DNA from: an uncultured Anaerolineales bacterium
GTDB taxonomy: Bacteria > Chloroflexota > Anaerolineae > B4-G1
Assembly (NCBI GenBank): GCA_964385635.1
Contig: CAYLPU010000011.1
Location: 133-64,132 of the forward strand
Reading direction: 5' to 3'
DNA length: 64,000 bases
Under the pieces are notes generated by a model that did no database searches, was not told the origin of the DNA, and saw only the letters and a list, made by a program, of their open reading frames with translations. Position numbers and translations under genes: made by a program. Shown in pieces: positions 10,669 to 35,610 of the stretch (positions are counted from its first letter, which is position 1; each line of letters opens with the position of its first letter).

Positions 10669-11133
10669 ATGAGAGCAAGATTGGGACAGTGGATGGCCCA
10701 CGTGGCAACCGGTTACACAGTTGATGAACTGATCTCCGTATGTATCGCCCGCCAGGTGGCCGACGGCGACGTTCTCGCGCAGGGAATCGCCACGCCGCTG
10801 GTTATGGCGGGCTATTTGTTGGCCAAACACACCCACGCGCCCCACGTTTCTTTCGCCTCGGCCGCTGGCAACGCACTGGTAGACAAACCTTGTGTTCGGG
10901 CTGTTGGCGTGGCGGTGGAGAAAATCCGCGTCAAGACAGGCATTCCCCTCGAGGCCGCTCCCGACCTGCGCGAGACCGAACTACTGAAGGTTGAAGAAGT
11001 CCAATTATTACGTGAGGTGATTGACCCGCTGGGCATCCGTCGCCTGGAGACCCTCAGCGATGGGGCGCGCAAGCGTGCCCTGCGGGAGATATTGGAGAGT
11101 GAGAAACAGGCTGCGTCGCAGGGCCTTACTTAA
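10669..11133 (+). CDS. CoA-transferase beta-subunit remnant (apparent in-frame internal deletion)
   Basis: The N-terminus YTVDELISVCIARQVADGDVLAQGIATPLVMAGYLLAKHTHAPHV and the C-terminus VEKIRVKTGIPLE...PDLRETELLKVEEVQLLREVIDPLG look like the two ends of a roughly 250-aa GctB/IpdB-type subunit joined in 154 aa. No alpha subunit is nearby. Confidence 0.45.
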   Translation: MRARLGQWMAHVATGYTVDELISVCIARQVADGDVLAQGIATPLVMAGYLLAKHTHAPHVSFASAAGNALVDKPCVRAVGVAVEKIRVKTGIPLEAAPDLRETELLKVEEVQLLREVIDPLGIRRLETLSDGARKRALREILESEKQAASQGLT

Positions 11134-11141
11134 CCACAAGT

Positions 11142-11302
11142 GTAACTACTCAGCCACCCCCACGCGGAGCGTTGAAACGCCCCGCTGATACGGCGAAACC
11201 CGTTAAAACGGGTTAGAAAGTCGCGTTTTAGTGCGTTTTAACGCACTTTGCGTATCAGCCGATGGTTTCAACCATCGGCGGGGCAAACGGGTGAGTAGTT
11301 AC
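11142..11302 (+). mobile_element. 161-bp MITE-like element, copy 1 (TIR GTAACTACTCA; TSD CCACAAGT)
   Basis: Terminal inverted repeats are gtaactactca (11142-11152) and tgagtagttac (11292-11302). It is flanked by direct repeats ccacaagt at 11134-11141 and 11303-11310. It is identical to the reverse complement of 34476..34636. Confidence 0.8.
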
Positions 11303-11329
11303 CCACAAGTCTCAATTAGGAGGTGAGTC

Positions 11330-12574
11330 ATGGAATCGAATCTCGATCTGAACCGCGCCATACCAGTGTTGGATTGGGCTCCACATCTGGCCTCGCGCAC
11401 AGAAAGTATGAAGAGTTCCGCTATCCGCGAATTGCTCAAGCTGACTCAAGATCCAGACGTGATCTCCTTCGCGGGAGGCTTGCCAGCCCCGGACTTCTTC
11501 CCCCTGCGCGAGATCGAAGAAGCCTGCCGGTACATCATCCGCGCGGACGGCGCTAGAGCACTGCAATATGGTGCCACCGAGGGATACGGACCGCTCAAGG
11601 AGTACCTGGCTACCACAATGCATAAGTATGGCGTCCCGGCTGTGCCAGGCAACCTCCTGCTGACCAATGGCTCTCAGCAGGCTCTGGATCTGGTTGGAAA
11701 ACTGTTCATTGACCCCGGCGACTACATCCTCACTGGACGCCCCACTTACCTGGGAGCAATCCAGGCCTGGAACGCTTATCAGGTGCGTTACCACACTGTG
11801 CGCCTCGACGACGACGGCATGGTTGTGGACGAGATGGAGCATGCTTACGAAAAGGTGCTTGCCGATTCCGGCGAGCCGCCCAAGTTCATTTACGTGCTGC
11901 CCAATTTCCACAATCCTGCCGGTACGACGATGCCTCTGGAGCGCCGCAAGCGGCTGGCTGAAATCGCCACGAGACTGGATCTCCCCGTCGTCGAGGACGA
12001 TCCCTACGGCCAGTTGCGGTACGAAGGAGAGGACATTCCTCCCATCGGCACCTTCATCCCCGAGCGTACAATTTACCTGGGGACCTTTTCCAAGATCCTG
12101 TCCCCGGGTCTGCGGCTGGGATGGATCGTATGTCCAGAGGTACTGATGCAACGCTTTGTGCAGGCCAAGCAGGGCGCTGACCTGCACACGAGTAGCTTTG
12201 TTCAATACATCGCCAACGACATCTGCCAGCGGGGCCTGATCAAGCCACACGTCAAGCGACTGTGCGATGCCTACAGAGAGCGGCGGGACACGATGCTTGA
12301 TGCGTTGGCTGAATTCTGGCCCGACGGTAGCAGTTGGACCCGTCCGCAAGGCGGGTTGTTTCTTTGGGCCCGCGTGCCGGAGCCCATTGACACGCTTGAG
12401 TTCTCGAAGGAGATCGTCGCCGAGAAAGTCGCCTATGTGCCTGGCGTCCACTTCTACCCCAACCAGGATGGGGGGCGCAATGCCATGCGGCTCAACTTCT
12501 CCTACTGCCCGCCGGATGTCATCGTCGAAGGTATCCGCAGGCTGGGCGCGGTGCTGAAGAAGGCATTGAGGTAG
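11330..12574 (+). CDS. PLP-dependent aminotransferase (class I/II fold, LysN/2-aminoadipate transaminase-like)
   Basis: SAIRELLKL...ISFAGGLPAPDFFP...YGATEGYGPLKEYLA...TFSKILSPGLRLGW (PLP lysine). RBS AGGAGGTGA lies upstream. Confidence 0.85.
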   Translation: MESNLDLNRAIPVLDWAPHLASRTESMKSSAIRELLKLTQDPDVISFAGGLPAPDFFPLREIEEACRYIIRADGARALQYGATEGYGPLKEYLATTMHKYGVPAVPGNLLLTNGSQQALDLVGKLFIDPGDYILTGRPTYLGAIQAWNAYQVRYHTVRLDDDGMVVDEMEHAYEKVLADSGEPPKFIYVLPNFHNPAGTTMPLERRKRLAEIATRLDLPVVEDDPYGQLRYEGEDIPPIGTFIPERTIYLGTFSKILSPGLRLGWIVCPEVLMQRFVQAKQGADLHTSSFVQYIANDICQRGLIKPHVKRLCDAYRERRDTMLDALAEFWPDGSSWTRPQGGLFLWARVPEPIDTLEFSKEIVAEKVAYVPGVHFYPNQDGGRNAMRLNFSYCPPDVIVEGIRRLGAVLKKALR

Positions 12575-21110: not shown

Positions 21111-24100
21111 ATGATTGAGATTTCCCTTGAGGAGTATTGTGAGCAGATTGAGAGCGCGATTGAGCAGGGCCGTTATGCGGAGGCCGTAGCCCATGGAAAG
21201 CATGTCCTGAGGCACTACTCCAAACACGTGGCAACCTATCGGCTGCTGGGTACGGCAATGCTCGAAGCCGGCCAGGATGAGTACACTGTCGATATGTTTC
21301 GCCGCGTGCTTAGCGCTGATCCTGAAGACATGCTCGCATGGGCGGGGATGAGCGAAGTGCACAACCGGCGTAGTGAGATTGACGCGGCAGCGTGGTGTCT
21401 GGAGCGGGCATTCGAACTGGCTACCGAGAACAAGGTGGTGGAGGAGGAATTATGCCACCTATATGGCCGGCGAGATGGCGTTGAAGCCCAGCGGGTCCAA
21501 CTCACCCGTGGCGCGCTGGCCCGGCTCTACCTGAGGGGCGATTTGCTCTCGCGGGCGATCGGCGAATTCCGTGCCCTGCTGGCTGAGCATCCCGAACGGG
21601 TGGACCTCAGCATTGCGCTGGCTGAGGCGCTCTGGCGCAACGATCAGCGATTGGAGGCGTCGGAGGTCTGCCAGCAGGTGCTGGATATGCTGCCCTACTG
21701 CCTCAAGGTCAATTTGATCCTGGGGGAAATCTGGAACAGCAGTGGTCGAGAGGAAGGACAGATGTACCTGCGGCGGGCCGAGGCCCTGGACCCGGAGAAC
21801 AAGGTAGCGCAGGAACTCTTCGGGGATGCATCACCGCTGCCAGCACGAGAAGTGCGGATCGTTCCCCTGGAGTATCAGCCCCCGATCAAGGAGGAGCTCC
21901 CGGCCTGGATGGCTGAGGTGGAGGCCGTATCGGCAGAGGGGCCACCGCTGACCGAGCGTGAGGCCGCGTTGGTTGACGTCGCGGCAGCGCTGGAGGCGCA
22001 GATTGAGATTCCTTCCTGGTTGGAGGAGATCGGCCTGAGCGAGGAGGCCCCTGCAACTGTACCGCCTGTTACCACCCCTACTGGGCCGTCGGAAGAGCAA
22101 TTGCCAGAGGAAGCGGTTCCCGCTCCAGCAGAGGAAGCCCCTGAGTGGCTGGCAGGCATCCGTGAAGAGTTGGTGGAGGAAAGACCGGAGGCGGTGGTCG
22201 AGGAAGAGACTCCCGAATGGTTGTCTGGACTTGGTATGGAGTCAATCGGTGAGGAGGACATCTTGGAACGGCTGTCTGAGCTGGATGTTGGGCCCACTGG
22301 TGAGGAGGAAGCGCCGGCGGTCTTGGAAGAGAAGGAGGTTCCGGAGTGGCTATCTGGATTGGGTGCCGAGGTAGCCGGTGAGGAAGCAGTCCCTTCTACT
22401 CCGCCCGCAGGAGAGTCTTCAGATTGGCTGGCCAGCCTGCGCGAGCAGTTTGTCGAAGAGGTAGAAGCGCTGGAGGAAACACCTGCCCCTGTAGCCGAGG
22501 AGGTGCCTAAGCCGGCCTGGTTGGAGGGTGAGGGGTTGCCTTCTGGTGACGAGGCGCTGGAGTGGCTGGAGCGACTGGCAGAGGGCGAAGAGGAAAAACT
22601 GCGCGTCCAGGCTGAAGCGGAGGCCGAGGTCCGCGTGGCCGAAATCGAAGAGGCGGTGGTGGAGGAAGCCGTAGCCCCTCCAGTTGGGGAGGCTGCTGTT
22701 CCCCAGGCCGAGGCAGGGTTCGGCTGGACGGCGTTCGGTGAGCCTGGGGCTCCGCCCGAGGCTGCCCCAGCGGTGGAGGAGATCCCGCCAGTGGAAGTAC
22801 CAGAGGAGATGGATATCCCTGCCCCTGTAGCCGAGGAGGTGCCTAAGCCGGCCTGGCTGGAGGGCGAGGGGTTGCCCTCTGGTGATGAGGCGCTGGAGTG
22901 GCTGGAGCGACTGGCAGAGAGCAGAGAGGAAAAACTGCGCGTCCAGGCTGAAGCGGAGGCCGAGGTCCGCGTAGCCGAGATCGAAGAGGCGGTGGTGGAG
23001 GAAGCCTTAGCCCCTCCGGTTGGGGAGGCTGTCGTTCCCCCGGCCGAGGCAGGGTTCGGCTGGACGGCGTTCGGTGAGCCTGGGGCTCCGCCCGAGGCTG
23101 CCCCAGCGGTGGAGGAGATCCCGCCAGTGGAAGTACCAGAGGAGATGGATATCCCTGCCCCTGTAGCCGAGGAGGTGCCTAAGCCGGCCTGGCTGGAGGG
23201 CGAGGGGTTGCCCTCTGGTGATGAGGCGCTGGAGTGGCTGGAGCGACTGGCAGAGAGCAGAGAGGAAAAACTGCGCGTCCAGGCTGAAGCGGAGGCCGAG
23301 GTCCGCGTAGCCGAGATCGAAGAGGCGGTGGTGGAGGAAGCCTTAGCCCCTCCGGTTGGGGAGGCTGTCGTTCCCCCGGCCGAGGCAGGGTTCGGCTGGA
23401 CGGCGTTCGGTGAGCCCGAGCCACCTCCCGTGGTCGAAGAGGCTCCGCAAGCGGAACCGGCTTTCGGTTGGACGGCCTTTGGCGAACCAGAGGCTCCGCC
23501 CGAGGCTATTCCGACGGCAGAGGCGGTAGAGGAGGCTTTGCCAGTAGAGGAAGAGGTCGTCCTTCCTGAGGTCTTGGAACAGGTGCTCCCGGAGGAGGTG
23601 AAGGCTCCGCCTACGGCGGAGGCGCCGGTGGTGGAGGAGAGACTCCCGTCTGAGGAGATCCTTGCACCGGAGGTAGTACCGCTCACGGAGGAGATGCGTT
23701 GGGGGGCTGTGCTGGAGGTATCGTTGGAGGAGGCGGAAGTGGCTTCAGCCCCGGTAATCGAGGAAGTGCCAGGCATGCCTGAGATGGAGATAACGGAACC
23801 GCTTGAGGAGGCCGCAGCACCACCAGAAATCCCGACCTTCGAGGTTCCTGCTGAGCCCTTCGCCGCCGAGCGGGCTCATCTGAAGGAGCATCCGCGCGAT
23901 TACGAAGCCTGGCTAGCGCTGGCGCGGGCGCTGTGGCAGGCTGGTGAGCAACAAGAAGCATTGGAAGCCTATACCCGTGTTATCCGCGTTGGTAAGTTTC
24001 TCGAGAGCGTGGTCCCGGACCTGGAAGAGTATGTGGAGCAGGAGCTCGACGTCAGCGCACAGCGTTTACTGGGTGACGCTTACATGAAAGACGGGCGGTT

Positions 24101-24160: not shown

Positions 24161-24610
24161 TTGGAACGCACGCTAGTTATCATCAAACCCGACGCTGTAC
24201 AGCGCGGGCTTAGCGGAGAGATTATTGCCCGTTTCGAACGGCGGGGGCTGTGTATCGCGGCGCTGAAACTGATACAGATTGACGAACCACTGGCTCGACG
24301 CCATTACGCGATTCACGAGGGGAAGTCCTTCTACGAGCCGCTAATTCGTTACATCACCTCCAGCCCAGTAGTGGTGATGGTATTGGAGGGAAACAACGCT
24401 ATCGAGATCGCGCGCCGCACGATGGGAGCGACCAACCCGGCCGAGGCGGCCCCTGGCACCATCCGTGCTGACTTCGGCCTGGAGATCGGCCGAAACCTGG
24501 TGCACGGTTCCGATGGGCCGGAGACGGCGGCTTTCGAGGTGCCGCTCTTCTTTACCGAGGACGAGATCCTCTCATACGAACGGGACATCGACCGCTGGAT
24601 ATTTGAGTAG
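24161..24610 (+). CDS. ndk: Nucleoside-diphosphate kinase
   Basis: TTG start. ERTLVIIKPDAVQRGL...NLVHGSD (active-site His). Confidence 0.95.
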   Translation: MERTLVIIKPDAVQRGLSGEIIARFERRGLCIAALKLIQIDEPLARRHYAIHEGKSFYEPLIRYITSSPVVVMVLEGNNAIEIARRTMGATNPAEAAPGTIRADFGLEIGRNLVHGSDGPETAAFEVPLFFTEDEILSYERDIDRWIFE

Positions 24611-24614
24611 CATT

Positions 24615-24953
24615 TCACAGCATCCGTACCACGATCCGCCCGTTCTGCCACAGCCCCTCCAGGTCGTAGAAAGCCCGTATTTCCGGTGCGAACAGGTGGA
24701 CCACTACATCGCCGTAGTCCATCAAAACCCAACCGGTGGCTGGTTCCACGTCGATGTGGAGCGGTCTGACATCGAACCTCCGCTTGGTCTCCTGTTTGAT
24801 GCTCTCGGTGATGGTCTTCGCTTGTCGTTCACTGGTGGTGCTGCCGATCACGAAATAGTCAGTCAGGATGGAGATGTCGCGAATGTCGAGCAGCAATACA
24901 TCTTCGCCCTTCTTATCGGCAATCATCTCCACGATGTTCCGAGCCAGTTCCAA
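24615..24953 (-). CDS. rsfS: Ribosome silencing factor RsfS (iojap family)
   Basis: KKGEDVLLLDIRDISILTDYFVIGSTTSERQ...WVLMDYGDVVVHLF. Confidence 0.9.
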   Translation of the reverse strand: MELARNIVEMIADKKGEDVLLLDIRDISILTDYFVIGSTTSERQAKTITESIKQETKRRFDVRPLHIDVEPATGWVLMDYGDVVVHLFAPEIRAFYDLEGLWQNGRIVVRML

Positions 24954-26079: not shown

Positions 26080-29000
26080 CTAGTCCAGCTTGAGCGACAC
26101 TACCTGCGAAACCCCGTCCGCGCCCATTGAGACGCCGTAGATGGTATCGGCGGCTTCGATGGTGACCCGGTTGTGGGTGATGATGATGAACTGGGTCTGC
26201 TGCGCCAACTCCTGCAGCAGCATGCGGAAGCGTTCCACGTTCGCCTCATCGAGCATCGCGTCTACCTCGTCGAGCACGCAGAAAGGGGTCGGATTGACGT
26301 GGAGGAGGGCGAACAGGAGCGCAGTCGCGGTCAGGGCACGCTCTCCGCCAGAGAGGAGCGCCAACGGCTGCGCACGCTTCCCTGGAGGGTGGGCGACGAT
26401 GTCCACACCGGTGTTCATCAGGTCGCTGGGCTCGGTCAACTCCAGCCGCGCTGTGCCGCCGTCGAACAGGGTAGTGAACGTTTTGGAGAACCTGGCTGCC
26501 ACCGCGTCGAAAGTCTCCTGGAAGGCGGCTTCCATCAGTTCGTCCAATTCGGCCACTATCTGGCGCAGTTGGGCTGAGGCTGTCTCCAGGTCAGTAGACT
26601 GCTCGGTGAGGAAACGATGTCGCTCCTGGACCTCGGCATAGTCGGCCGGGGCGTTGGGATTGACCGATCTCAACCGTCGGAGGCGGGCTTTGAGGCGTTG
26701 TATCTCCTCCTCCAATCCTCCAGGCATTTCCTCAACGATGGGAAGTTGGGAAACCAGTGGTTGCAGGGGCAACGGGGTCTGTGCCGTGACGCTCTCCGCT
26801 AGTTCCAGTTCGACCAGCCCCAGGTCTTCCTCAATGTGCCGGGCTAGAAGCCGTAACTCATCCCGGCAGCGGGCGACGTCCAATTGGGCACGGCCCTGGC
26901 GGGTCTCCACATCGCGCATCCGGTCGCGGGCTCGTCGCTCTTGCTCTTCCGTCGCTGCCTGCTCTTCGCGGAGACGTGTCAGTTCCTCCTCGGCAGGCTG
27001 AATATGCGTGCGCATCTGGTGCAGTTGTCCTTCCATCTGTGATGTCTCTGAGCGCAACTCCTGGGTGCGTGCGACGATAGCGACGTGTTCGGTCTCCAGT
27101 TCCTCAGCCCGTTGGCGCCGGGCGGCCATCTGCGTCTGAAGCCGCGCCAGCAATGCTGTCTCCCTCTGCAAGGCTGCCTGCTGGCTGCGCAGGGCTTCTT
27201 CTGTCACTGCGACCTCAGTGCGGGCCTTCCCCACCCTCTCCCGTTCGACCCGCGCCGCCTCCTCGCTGGCAGCCGCCACCTGCTGGGCCAGTTCCTCCAA
27301 CCTGGCCTCCAGTGCCGTCACCCGTTCAACCCCCGCACGCCGCTGTTCCTCAATCTCCTGACTTTGCCATTCGCCATTCGCCATTTGCGAGGATTCCGCA
27401 CGCAATTCCTGGAGGCGGGCGACGATAGCGGTCTGCTCAGCCTCCAGATCGCCAGCCTGTCCACGCAGGGCAGTCATCTGTGCCCCAAGCCGCTCTAGCA
27501 GTGCTTCCTCCCGTTGCAGAGTAGCCCGCTGATTGCGCAGCGTCTCCTCGGCCACCGCGCCCTCGGTGCGAACCGTACCCAGCCTCTCCCGGACGACCTG
27601 CGCCGCCTTCTCCCTGACCGCCGTCGCCTGCCGATCCAGCTCTTCCAACTCGGCTTCCAGTGCCGCGATCCGTCCGGTCTCCGCCTGCTGCCGCTCCTCA
27701 ATTTCCTGACCACGGTGCTGAACCTCCTCCAACCGCGCGGGAAGTTCCCGGTGGGACCGCTCGCCCGCAAGAATACCGCCCGTCCCAGCCTGCCCCACCG
27801 AGAGAGCACCGTTGGCTCGCAGGACAATGCCCGTACTGGTGACGCAGCGGCTTCCCGGCGGCATGGCGGGGAGCAGCGCCCGGGCCGCCGTCAGGTCGTC
27901 GCACAGCGCCACAGCCCCCAGCACCGTTTCGACCGCCGGTCGCACACGCTCGTCGCAGATAACGACGTCGGCAGCACGCAGCGCACCCGAGGGCAACGGC
28001 GGGATCGGGCGGAGGGTATCCAGCGGCAGCAAGGTCAGTCGCCCCCCTGCGGATTCGAGATCCCGGCGCACCTCCTCCACGACGGAAGCCCGCTCCACTA
28101 CGACAGCCTGAAGGTCAATACCCAGCGCGGCCTCGACGGCGCGCTCCCACTCAGGAACCACCTGAATCAGCGCCGCCAGCGGCCCGAGAACATTGTCCAG
28201 ATCAGCTTGCTGGAGCGCCCGAACGCCAGCGTCACGAGCAGCCCGCGCGTCGCGCATCTGGCTCAACGCTGCCTGCTCGCCTGCCAGGCGGGCCGCCTCC
28301 GCGCGGACCTGGAGGAGTGCCTGATTTAACCGTTCCAACTGCGCGCGACGAGAGTGTAATTCCTGCTCCACCCGAATATGCTGCCGGTCGGGTTCCTGCG
28401 CCTGCTCCTGCACAGCCGCCCACTCCTGCTCCAGGTCCGCCAAACGCCGCTTGCGCTCCGCCAGTCCGCGTTCCAGTTGCTCGACCTGAGCGCGGGCCTG
28501 AGCGACCCGCTCCGCCTGCGCCTCTCGCTGACCGTCCAGGGGTTCGAGTGCGGCCAGGATCTCCTCACGCCGGACCTGCAACTGCCGCGCCCGCTCCTCT
28601 GCCACGGCTTGCTCGCTTGCCAGGCGGACCGTCTCTGCGCGCACGTCGAGGAACGCCTGATTCAACCGCTCCAACTGCGCGCGATGGGCGCGCAACTCCT
28701 GCTCCACCTGGGCGCGCTGCCGGGCGGGTTCCTGCGCCTGCTCCTGCACGGTCGCCCACTCCCGCTCCAGATCCGCCAATCGTTGCTTGCGCTCCGCCAG
28801 ATCGCACTCCAGTTGCTCGGCCCGGGCACATGCCTGGGCGACTTTCTCTGCCTGCGTCTCTTGCTGGGTGCGCAAGAGTTCAAGTTCGGCCAGCAGTTCC
28901 TCGCGCCGGGCCTTGAGTAGACGCGCTCGTTCCTCTGCCACGGCTAGTTCGCGCTGTACTTTGTCGGCCATGACATGAAGGTCGGCACTCTCGCGGTGCC

Positions 29001-33372: not shown

Positions 33373-33703
33373 AGAGCACTCTCCCTTCCTGCAGAGCCTG
33401 TCGTATGAATGGCCGTGCGCGGAGCGCCTCGAACTCCTGCGGTGTGTATGCCAGCAGGTCAAGGCCAACACGGGGTTGAATCCGCTCGTACAGCAATTCC
33501 AGCCGCTTGACAAACGGCAGGTCGGAATCGAGCACGACGATGAGATCCAAATCGCTCCATGCACTGACCTTCTCGCGGGCAACAGAGCCAAATAGGATTA
33601 CGCGCTTAGCTCCTATCTGGCGCAGAACCCGCACAGCACGCTCAAGTTCACGCTCCAGCAATGCCTGCCTATCAGCGCGTTGCTCTTGCCAGTATTCTAT
33701 CAC
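33362..33703 (-). CDS. Nucleotidyltransferase (MNT) domain protein
   Basis: ILFGSVAREKVSAWSDLDLIVVL (GS...DxD). The GTG start overlaps the GT2 stop (GTGA). Its 3' end overlaps the HEPN start by 11 nt. Confidence 0.85.
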   Translation of the reverse strand: MIEYWQEQRADRQALLERELERAVRVLRQIGAKRVILFGSVAREKVSAWSDLDLIVVLDSDLPFVKRLELLYERIQPRVGLDLLAYTPQEFEALRARPFIRQALQEGRVLYEA

Positions 33704-34419
33704 TTCGGCTTCTCCTCGCGCAATTCCCGGCTCAGCCGCAGCCGGAAGCGCACCAGGTCACGGAACGCCCTGGCGATCACTTTGACATTGCCACCGGTGG
33801 ACTCGCCCGCCAGGCGCGGCAGATGAGTCACCGGTACATCGGCGATGCGGTAACCACGTGCTCGTGCCTTGAACAGGAACTCTGTGTCAACCATCGCTCC
33901 GTCGGAAACGATGGTCACGTGCTCCAGGATATCGCGCCGGAACAGTTTGAAGCCACAGTCGACGTCGCGGCACAGGTAGCCGAATAGCAGCCGCATCAGT
34001 GTATTCCAGCCAAAGGCAAAGAATTTGCGGACGATGTTATCCTGCCGGTCGGCCCGGTAGCCGGACACGATGTCTGCCTCGTCGAGGCGCTCCAGAAGCC
34101 GGTTGATCTCGCTGAAGACAAATTGGTTGTCCGCCGGGGCGAACGCGATCAGTTCCCTGGTGGCAGTGGCAAATCCGGCCTTCAGCGATCCTCCATAGCC
34201 CCGGTTGGGGTAATGCTCCACCAGCCGGAAATTGGGGATGCGCTGCGCCAGTTCGCGGCCGATTTCGCCAGTGCGGTCGGTGCTGCCGTCGTTGACCAGG
34301 ATGATCTCGTAATCCATCCCCAACTGCTGGGCCACAGTGGAAACCTTCTCCACGGCGCTTTCGACGTTTGCCTCTTCATTGTAGGCGGGAAGAATGATGG
34401 AAAGACTGGGCATCATCAC
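33700..34419 (-). CDS. Glycosyltransferase family 2 (polyprenol-phosphate sugar synthase-like)
   Basis: LSIILPAYNEEANV...ILVNDGSTDRT...GYGGSLKAG. Confidence 0.9.
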   Translation of the reverse strand: MMMPSLSIILPAYNEEANVESAVEKVSTVAQQLGMDYEIILVNDGSTDRTGEIGRELAQRIPNFRLVEHYPNRGYGGSLKAGFATATRELIAFAPADNQFVFSEINRLLERLDEADIVSGYRADRQDNIVRKFFAFGWNTLMRLLFGYLCRDVDCGFKLFRRDILEHVTIVSDGAMVDTEFLFKARARGYRIADVPVTHLPRLAGESTGGNVKVIARAFRDLVRFRLRLSRELREEKPK

Positions 34420-34475
34420 CTCTCATCAAATGTCGGCCCTAATGTTACACCAATGTGCGTAAATTGGCAATTAGC

Positions 34476-34636
34476 GTAACTACTCACCCGTTTGCCCCGC
34501 CGATGGTTGAAACCATCGGCTGATACGCAAAGTGCGTTAAAACGCACTAAAACGCGACTTTCTAACCCGTTTTAACGGGTTTCGCCGTATCAGCGGGGCG
34601 TTTCAACGCTCCGCGTGGGGGTGGCTGAGTAGTTAC
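34476..34636 (-). mobile_element. 161-bp MITE-like element, copy 2 (inverted relative to copy 1; TSD CAATTAGC)
   Basis: The reverse complement is identical to 11142..11302 by base-by-base reading. It is flanked by caattagc at 34468-34475 and 34637-34644. It lies between the divergent GT2 operon and ftsY. Confidence 0.8.
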
Positions 34637-34652
34637 CAATTAGCAGTCTATA

Positions 34653-34681
34653 TTGCTCAACACTATGCTTTGAGGTATAAT
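34653..34681 (+). promoter_or_regulatory. Sigma70-like promoter for ftsY (-35 TTGCTC, -10 TATAAT)
   Basis: TTGCTC at 34653-34658, a 17-nt spacer, then TATAAT at 34676-34681. It begins 9 nt after the MITE target-site duplication. Confidence 0.4.
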
Positions 34682-34698
34682 TTGGTAGAGGGTTCATT

Positions 34699-35610
34699 AT
34701 GGCTACCGGGATTGCCCGATCAATCAGAGACAGTTTGACGCGCACGCGCAACGCCGTCTTTAGCCACATCGCGGAGCTGCTGGGGGCCAGCCAGGTGACG
34801 GCTGCCACCTGGGACGAACTGGAGGAATTGTTGATCCAGGCCGACGTGGGCGTGGAGACGACGCTCTATCTGGTCGAGCGGCTGCGGAAGCGCACCCGTG
34901 ACGAGGCGATTCTACAGGCCGGCACGTTCCAGACGGTGTTGCGGGAAGATCTGCGGGCGCTGCTGCCCGACTCACCACCGCTCAACCTGGGAGGCCGGTC
35001 GCTGGACGTGGTGCTCATCGCCGGCGTGAATGGGTCGGGAAAAACGACGAGCATCGCCAAACTGGCTCATCGCTACCAGAGGCAGGGCCGGCGGGTGCTG
35101 CTGGCGGCAGCCGACACGTTTCGTGCCGCAGCGATGGATCAACTGGGAATATGGGCGGAGCGGGCGGGCGTGGACATCGTCACCGGTCCAGAGGGTGGGG
35201 ATCCGGGTGCGGTCGTCTTTGATGCATTGCAGGCTGCGCGAGCGCGGGGGATGGATATGGTGATCGCCGACACTGCCGGGCGGCTGCACACGCAATACAA
35301 CCTGATGGCTGAGTTGCGAAAAGTGTGGAGGGTGGCGGCGAAGAACGCCGAGGGTGCACCGCACGAGACGCTACTGGTGGTCGATGCCACCACTGGGCAG
35401 AATGCGCTATCGCAGGCGCGGCACTTTCAGGAGGCGGTGGAGGTGACTGGCGTCGTGCTGGCCAAGTTGGATAGCACGGCCAGAGGCGGGATGGTCTTCG
35501 CCATTGCCCGCGAATTGGGGCTACCGGTACGCTTCGTTGGTACTGGAGAGAAGATAGAAGACTTGACTCCGTTCGACGCTGATGCGTTTGTGGAGGGGCT
35601 GTTGGGGTAG
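34699..35610 (+). CDS. ftsY: Signal recognition particle receptor FtsY
   Basis: [22 protein letters not shown] and [11 protein letters not shown] (SRP GTPase motifs). Confidence 0.95.

Follow-up and report, generated by a model that had tools for sequence, protein, structure and literature searches.

A recently mobile 161-bp element of an uncultured Anaerolineae bacterium is probably a REPIN-like module enclosed in an IS66-type MITE shell

In the REPtron of E. coli and the REPINs of Pseudomonas, a single-copy gene for a Y1/HUH protein is flanked by hairpins that are also dispersed through intergenic regions (PMC3116915, PMC6006769, PMC5581495), the REPtron consisting of a RAYT gene flanked by its REPs (PMC6006769). 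Bertels et al. described a 'RAYT-like IS200 Group 3' and found RAYT Group 4 to be common in Caldilineae (PMC5581495), so that there is precedent for an IS200-like branch tied to repeats. Two further kinds of non-autonomous elements are relevant here, namely, the IS200/IS605 PATEs and the MITEs derived from DDE transposons. Among potential sources of the latter is the ISBst12 group of the IS66 family, a member of which, ISDge4 from Deinococcus geothermalis, contains a single ORF, has been seen to transpose, and has the ends GTGACTACTCAGCA and GTAACTGCTCAGCA and an 8-bp repeat (PMC12898284). In the literature searched, we found no published REP/REPIN-like system in Chloroflexota; the part searched for ISBst12-type MITEs and for REPINs enclosed by TIR-MITE shells likewise contained no account of either.

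The element described here appears to combine features of two of these systems, the IS66-type MITEs and the REPINs. As in the REPtron and REPINs, a single-copy Y1/HUH gene is flanked by hairpins which are also dispersed intergenically, and the repeated core is REPIN-like in its inverted-doublet architecture, in the maintenance of its stems by compensatory change and in its lineage-wide persistence. However, the core consists of a two-hairpin unit arranged as a 116-nt doublet of five helices, whereas a REP measures 20-40 nt; unlike in REP/RAYT systems, no GTAG/CGTC foot is evident in the core and the enzyme scores as IS200-type rather than as a canonical RAYT; and, unlike REPINs, some of the cores sit within DDE-type MITE shells flanked by target duplications. 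With PATEs, the core shares the small size, the lack of genes, the subterminal hairpins and the apparent dependence on a Y1 enzyme, and the cores that have no shell likewise lack a target duplication. By contrast, the end hairpins of PATEs are recognised on the same strand, whereas the two halves of the core mirror each other on opposite strands; the Y1 gene has whole cores on each side; and the copy under study is bounded by terminal inverted repeats (TIRs) and an 8-bp duplication, features that do not arise from Y1 transposition. The resemblance to ISBst12-group IS66 elements and DDE-derived MITEs lies in the ends, GT(A/G/T)ACT(A/G)CTCAG, in the 8-bp target duplication, in the single-ORF transposase of the partner IS with its zf-IS66 and DDE_Tnp_IS66 domains, and in the nature of the element itself, a short, non-coding, multi-copy derivative which has only the ends in common with that IS. 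Unlike in DDE-derived MITEs, the interior is unrelated to the partner IS and is a repeat with an apparent partner gene of its own.

The 161-bp element and its IS66-type ends

The window, that is, the whole 64,000-nt stretch of DNA that was analysed, lies on contig C11 of a 5.09-Mb metagenome-assembled genome (MAG; 187 contigs, 60% G+C, 6.3% estimated contamination), which was searched in full. The FtsY protein of this host shows 86-89% identity to its counterparts in Anaerolineae and Anaerolineales MAGs, and the locus is present in runs from salt-lake metagenomes. The element (34476-34636, plus strand), which we assign to family A, is the exact reverse complement of a sister copy at 11142-11302 (minus strand): the repeat search returned 161 nt with 100% complementarity and zero mismatches, a result reasserted by a script, so that the exact inverted duplication reported in the original prediction is confirmed. 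The TIRs are 14 bp long (left, GTAACTACTCACCC, 34476-34489; right, GGCTGAGTAGTTAC, the reverse complement of GTAACTACTCAGCC, 34623-34636) and mismatch at 1 of the 14 positions, the consensus of the MITE TIRs being GTAACTACTCA[C/G]CC. The 8-bp target site duplication (TSD) CAATTAGC occupies positions 34468-34475 and 34637-34644, and a different one, CCACAAGT on the plus strand and ACTTGTGG on the minus strand, surrounds the sister copy (11134-11141 and 11303-11310), in agreement with the earlier reading of the sequence. The element is non-coding, with the longest stop-free stretch extending over 32 codons.

GTAA-type ends and 8-bp duplications, which we take to be traits of the IS66 family, hinted at a partner from that family, and one was therefore sought. 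The search of the genome with the Pfam DDE_Tnp_IS66 profile produced four hits, the best of which lies within an IS of 1,580 bp (C47:36802-38381) with GTTACTACTCAGGC at both ends and the 8-bp duplication GAATGGTC. Its single ORF encodes a 491-aa protein with DUF6444, zf-IS66 (PF13005, E 2.7e-9) and DDE_Tnp_IS66 (PF03050, E 7.5e-42) domains; no accessory tnpA/tnpB-like ORF was found in this IS, in which the other stop-free stretches of at least 100 codons overlap the 491-aa ORF out of frame. A single ORF, a total length of about 1.5-1.6 kb, the IS66 domains, ends of the known type and the 8-bp repeat place the C47 IS in the ISBst12 group. When TIR pairs with at most two mismatches and a perfect 8-bp duplication were required, the scan of the genome recovered the C47 IS as the only element of transposase length, along with 24 short elements (116-203 bp) that have at least eight unrelated interiors. 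The left TIR of the target copy matches the ends of both the C47 IS and ISDge4, and the C47 ends differ from those of the MITE at position 3 (T vs A) and past position 11. Given the TIRs, the TSDs that differ between copies, the small size, the lack of coding capacity, the multiple copies and an autonomous element with matching ends, the target element is classified, on sequence grounds, as an ISBst12-type MITE. Because the ends are of the same type and the duplications of the same length, the C47 transposase most likely mobilises family A in trans.

At least eight further families of 116-203 bp with GT(A/T)ACT(A/G)CTCAG ends, 8-bp duplications and unrelated interiors were observed in this genome, for instance, at C8:57093-57251, C13:4020-4159, C49:19397-19599, C36:33401-33552 and C63:12389-12540. 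Many of these short elements are located at contig ends, suggesting that they probably fragmented the assembly. In practical terms, such repeats disrupt the assembly of MAGs and position structured DNA 20-200 bp ahead of genes.

The structured core and its distribution

Element positions 24-139 form a 116-nt structured core (34499-34614, plus strand; 11164-11279 in the sister copy), supported by its predicted fold, a score of 136.7 bits with covariance model R1, compensatory changes and adjacency to a Y1 transposase gene. The core comprises hairpin H1 (34499-34520), the 5' arm of P2 (34521-34526), H2 (34531-34548), H3 (34564-34581), the 3' arm of P2 (34587-34592) and H4 (34593-34614). Thus, four hairpins with a GTTnnAAC-type apex are combined with the long-range helix CTGATAC/GTATCAG, yielding five helices with a predicted folding energy of -86.4 kcal/mol and a z-score of -8.4. 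A two-hairpin unit occurs twice, as an inverted doublet, [stem-GTTGAAAC-stem]-CTGATAC-[stem-GTTAAAAC-stem], in which H1-CTGATAC-H2 is mirrored by H3-GTATCAG-H4 and the loops TGAA/TAAAA are complementary to TTTTA/TTCA. It is due to this pseudo-dyad that R1 scores on both strands. GTTnnAAC hairpins were also sought as free units and were found essentially only inside cores.

To assess covariation, 26 best-strand copies from about 24 genomes were aligned with MAFFT, with no fitting to the structure; in this alignment, RNAalifold detected double compensatory changes in 19 of the 24 predicted pairs. Parsing of the minimum-energy folds of 108 cores proved too noisy and was replaced by a partner-swap duplex test, in which the P2 arms paired better with their own partners than with swapped ones (-11.2 vs -8.2 kcal/mol), none of 5000 permutations being as good. 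The conserved linear motif of the core, CTGATAC/GTATCAG, is itself paired. Selection on the structure is likely, not proven, given that neither control removes the effect of shared ancestry and that template switching can also keep palindromes complementary.

Within-genome BLAST revealed diverged versions of positions 24-139 that have other termini. In C25 (duplication AAGAGAAG) and C72, the core is associated with a different IS66-type end, GTAAGCGTTCA, and five near-identical cores, in C8, C57, C38, C20 and C49, have neither inverted ends nor a duplication. Beyond the host, R1 detected the core in 43 of 145 genomes of the order, in 30 of 58 genera and in all three families, with up to at least 25 matches per genome. 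A scan for the exact H2...H3 signature across one genome per prokaryote species yielded more than 111 stretches in named genomes, and the matches listed are all labelled as Chloroflexota or subgroups thereof (Anaerolineae, Ardenticatenales, Caldilineales including Litorilinea, and Promineifilaceae). The outer arms of the core differ completely between genomes. Among 78 named copies with full flanks, IS66-type ends are present on neither side in 65, on one side in seven and on both sides in six; in five of the six two-ended copies, the two sides of the duplication agree at 7 or all 8 positions, e.g. GCCAAGGC in L174, AAAATAAG in L244 and TCTTTGAG in L218. The shells vary: in the host genome, cores are surrounded by IS66-type shells whose ends are of at least two kinds, other named Chloroflexota MAGs (some labelled Ardenticatenales) contain IS66-type shells with a different subterminal sequence, and other inverted-repeat shells apparently occur elsewhere. 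In ordinary MITE families, the ends are conserved and the interior drifts. Here, by contrast, the interior is conserved across the order with compensatory changes and it is the ends that vary by genome. By these comparisons, the core is a repeat mainly of Anaerolineae, separate from the IS, and not a leftover of the C47 IS.

Two side observations concern individual loci. A second single-ORF IS66-type element (C78:21748-23393; 1,646 bp) has the ends GTAACCGTTCAG, a 488-aa ORF and the duplication CGACAAAC; at least seven other contigs have the same end sequence no more than about 55 nt from their termini, so that the element is multi-copy, and it may mobilise the GTAAGCGTTCA-ended, core-carrying family (C25:53174-53336). 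In contig C49, pairs of cores (24419-24887 and 27674-27959) are found on both sides of a 746-codon Ser/Thr-kinase-like ORF that contains tandem repeats of about 153 bp (C49:26447-27478), and both pairs share a right-end remnant followed by GTTTCACCTACAATGACGCAAA.

A Y1 transposase gene beside the core

Searching the genome for Y1_Tnp (PF01797) identified a gene in contig C133 (9563-10071) which encodes a 168-aa protein with HIH and GYGALS motifs and is preceded by two complete cores in tandem (65 and 58 bits), the second ending 21 nt before the ATG. At E<=1e-10, this protein has one match in the host genome and 1-3 matches in each of 37 other genomes of the order. When 30 loci with Y1 homologues were scanned with R1, 16 proved to have a core no more than about 110 nt from the gene, and nine had cores on both sides. 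In a second sample, which consists of named genomes and overlaps with the first, a core is present at this distance at 23 of 26 loci, with cores on both sides in at least ten; five cores are arranged in tandem at the L307 locus. Given that genomes of 3-5 Mb contain at most a few dozen cores, the probability of chance adjacency is well below 1% per gene. The sample of 26 includes loci from MAGs labelled Candidatus Fraserbacteria (two), Gemmatimonadota and Candidatus Anaeroferrophillacea, that is, from outside Chloroflexota, suggesting that the Y1-plus-core pair may move between phyla as a unit.

The protein passes the NF033573 (IS200/IS605) model with 85.6 bits against a cut-off of 55 and remains below the cut-off of the RAYT model NF047646 (17.4 bits vs 80). 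Its best relatives among solved structures are the IS200-type transposases 2f4f, ISDra2 (2xm3) and IS608 (2a6m). Visual inspection of the alignments revealed no GTAG or CGTC tetranucleotide at the feet of the hairpins. The cores that adjoin the Y1 gene of the host genome form a diverged subfamily, distinct from that of the dispersed cores, of which only C22:31370 resembles the flanking ones; hence, the recent spread in this genome seems to have taken the DDE route. Many core-rich genomes have no close Y1 orthologue, which is weak evidence because these genomes are incomplete MAGs. A looser comparison of the presence of Y1 genes (E<=1e-10) and cores across genomes was uninformative (14 genomes observed with both against about 11 expected, no better than chance), so that only close orthologues and physical adjacency bear on the association.

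We consider it probable that the target element is a chimera in which an IS66-type MITE shell surrounds a REPIN-like module with a Y1 partner. The shell, i.e. the ends with about 9 nt on each side, would account for the 8-bp duplications and for the recent burst of nine copies in the assembly, and the REPIN-like core would account for the conservation, structure and distribution of the interior. Under this model, the C47 transposase would move the shell in trans, and the Y1 enzyme would process the core hairpins as single-stranded DNA. The core might have entered the shell by insertion into a palindromic MITE, by capture between two ends or through descent from a core-carrying IS66 copy. Since the host is a MAG with some estimated contamination, co-residence of all these parts in one cell is assumed. 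The more general proposition that DDE-type MITE shells repeatedly come to enclose REPIN-like modules of an IS200-type Y1 transposase is, for now, tentative. If it holds, one tiny element would have two independent routes, single-strand processing by Y1 and cut- or copy-and-paste by a DDE enzyme, which would amount to hitch-hiking between two classes of non-autonomous elements. The second copy in the window by itself signifies only recent activity of an ISBst12-type MITE in an uncultured salt-lake Anaerolineae bacterium, a routine matter. If the element is indeed a chimera, it would be a concrete example of how a REP-type element can acquire a second route of mobilisation, and the core would belong to a large REP/REPIN-like family run by an IS200-like Y1 branch.

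The adjacency of gene and core could have a simpler cause. The element might be an ordinary IS66-derived MITE with a partnerless interior, next to which an IS200-type IS is often found simply because it prefers to insert into or beside hairpins, as some ISs target REPs. The assignment of the Y1 protein to the IS200/IS605 type by NCBIfam, its closest solved relatives, which are true IS transposases, and the dissimilarity between flanking and dispersed cores in the host genome are all compatible with such targeting. Nevertheless, we regard this explanation as unlikely: the gene has one match in the host genome and 1-3 elsewhere, the flanking cores are whole rather than split, and the 21 nt between H4 and the ATG in C133 leave no room for the left end of an IS. 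Furthermore, adjacency persists as the identity of the Y1 proteins falls from 96% to about 40%, and extends into MAGs labelled as other phyla, which fits co-inheritance better than repeated targeting.

Other Y1 genes of the host genome (C5:60006-60341, C5:26379-26663 and C54:29132-29497) are flanked by different hairpins of their own, suggesting that several REP-like systems coexist in this genome; the hairpin sequences AGAAACCGGGTTTTTTCTGAAAAACCCGGTTTCT, GGCGGTTTTGCTAACCGCC, GGTCGGATAGCAAATCCGACC and CCCCGCCGCTTGCGGCGGGG produce 152, 31-35, 31-35 and 7 genome hits, respectively. The idea that all short IS66-ended families carry the REP hairpins of other Y1 genes was considered and found to be unsupported, the sole short IS66-ended element with (split) arms of a hairpin of the C5:60006 type being C78:21407-21547.

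Copies of the element and their insertion sites

Eight of the nine full family A copies in the assembly lie 20-216 nt upstream of a gene start. This location, together with the very stable predicted fold (z-score -8.4) and the compensatory changes in five helices, could indicate that the core functions at the RNA level (as a small RNA or a cis-acting mRNA element) and travels as a passenger that the host retains for a role in regulation, termination or the stability of mRNAs. However, several observations render this reading quite improbable. The Rfam scan of the element gave only chance-level matches (rox1, 26 bits vs 58; CRISPR-DR17, 19 bits vs 42), the pseudo-symmetric core scores on both strands, and the consistent neighbour of the core is a gene for a DNA transposase. 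Related genomes differ in copy number, from 0 to at least 25, as is the case with selfish DNA. Moreover, orientation with respect to the downstream gene is unbiased, 4 vs 4 among the eight copies upstream of genes. Accordingly, the earlier suggestion that the same end points towards the adjacent gene does not extend beyond the window, and the common orientation of the two window copies, whose interior is pseudo-symmetric in any case, is a coincidence. No sigma-70-like promoter or intrinsic-terminator-like site was found inside the element.

The nine copies are distributed over seven contigs; seven of them are identical and two near-identical, one with two changes and the other with a 7-bp internal duplication. 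The identity of the repeat pair in the window is far beyond chance. A TSD was sought at all nine copies and was absent only from the one in C180; the remaining eight are all different (GAAAAAAG, ACCTACGA, ATTGGCA, ACTTGTGG, CAATTAGC, CCGGAATC, AGATGGAC and CCGGCGTT), with a length of 8 bp at seven copies and 7 bp (ATTGGCA) at one. The flanks are otherwise unrelated, which, in conjunction with a separate TSD for each of these copies, rules out segmental duplication and demonstrates repeated insertion, as the original prediction had argued from the two window copies. An origin of the window pair by segmental duplication or inversion without transposition, to which two identical, inverted copies 23 kb apart might point, has practically nothing to recommend it: identity ends exactly at the 161-bp termini, beyond which the flanks are unrelated, the 8-bp duplications of the two copies are different and seven more copies sit on other contigs. 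A family A element is also present in L218, a member of another genus (161 bp, 93.8% identical, with its own duplication TCTTTGAG).

The changes in the two non-identical copies (C180:1220-1380 and C29:2467-2634) are confined to the apex of H1. In one copy, the central dinucleotide is inverted, GGTTGAAACC to GGTTTCAACC, and in the other, 7 bp (TTGAAAC) are duplicated; the loop flip also occurs in the L218 copy. These changes look like the products of hairpin-driven template switching.

At the target locus, the element lies between two divergent genes, one for a family-2 glycosyltransferase (GT2; 33700-34419, minus strand; PF00535, E 2.3e-28), the start of which is 56 nt away, and ftsY, encoding the SRP receptor GTPase (34699-35610, plus strand; Pfam SRP54, E 1.4e-76). 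On the GT2 side, promoter-like sites are present at 34442-34447 (-10) and 34465-34470 (-35), the latter overlapping the left TSD copy by 3 nt and staying intact. On the ftsY side, the conserved -35-like TTGCTC (34653-34658) starts 8 nt past the right TSD copy and is separated by a 17-nt spacer from TATAAT (34676-34681), both being intact. The stretch ATTGCTCAAC...GGTATAAT next to ftsY is kept in relatives, as is the promoter stretch next to GT2. The orthologous spacer is empty in the related species L028, L032 and L039, and in L032 a single copy of the octamer CAATTAGC occurs at the matching place. This comparison, which had been put forward as a check, and the seven identical copies both bear out the recent activity claimed at the outset. 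A search of public metagenome contigs for the exact empty-site pattern returned no match, and this collection may lack the host population. The insertion therefore only spaces the two divergent promoter-like sites by 169 bp and breaks neither; with no promoter-like or terminator-like site inside the element, the proposed effect on expression of the downstream genes finds no support.

The control region between GT2 and ftsY (34440-34475 and 34645-34690) is conserved across L028, L032, L035 and L039, with CAATGTTACACCAAT...AAATT(A/G)GCAA and ATTGCTCAAC...GGGGTATAAT bordering a variable spacer, into which the MITE inserted.

The sister copy ends 27 nt upstream of the ATG of a class I/II aminotransferase gene (11330-12574, plus strand; PF00155, E 2.2e-36); this distance and that to the GT2 start agree with those given originally. 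On its other side, a 154-aa ORF without a Pfam match (10669-11133) ends 8 nt before the element. Without the insertion, the stop codon of this ORF would be about 35 nt from the aminotransferase ATG, which may place the sister copy within an operon. The region that separates the two MITE copies contains, at 22458-23523 and 27033-28906, tandem repeats with units of 336-348 bp that are 72-92% identical and probably correspond to repeated protein domains in large genes.
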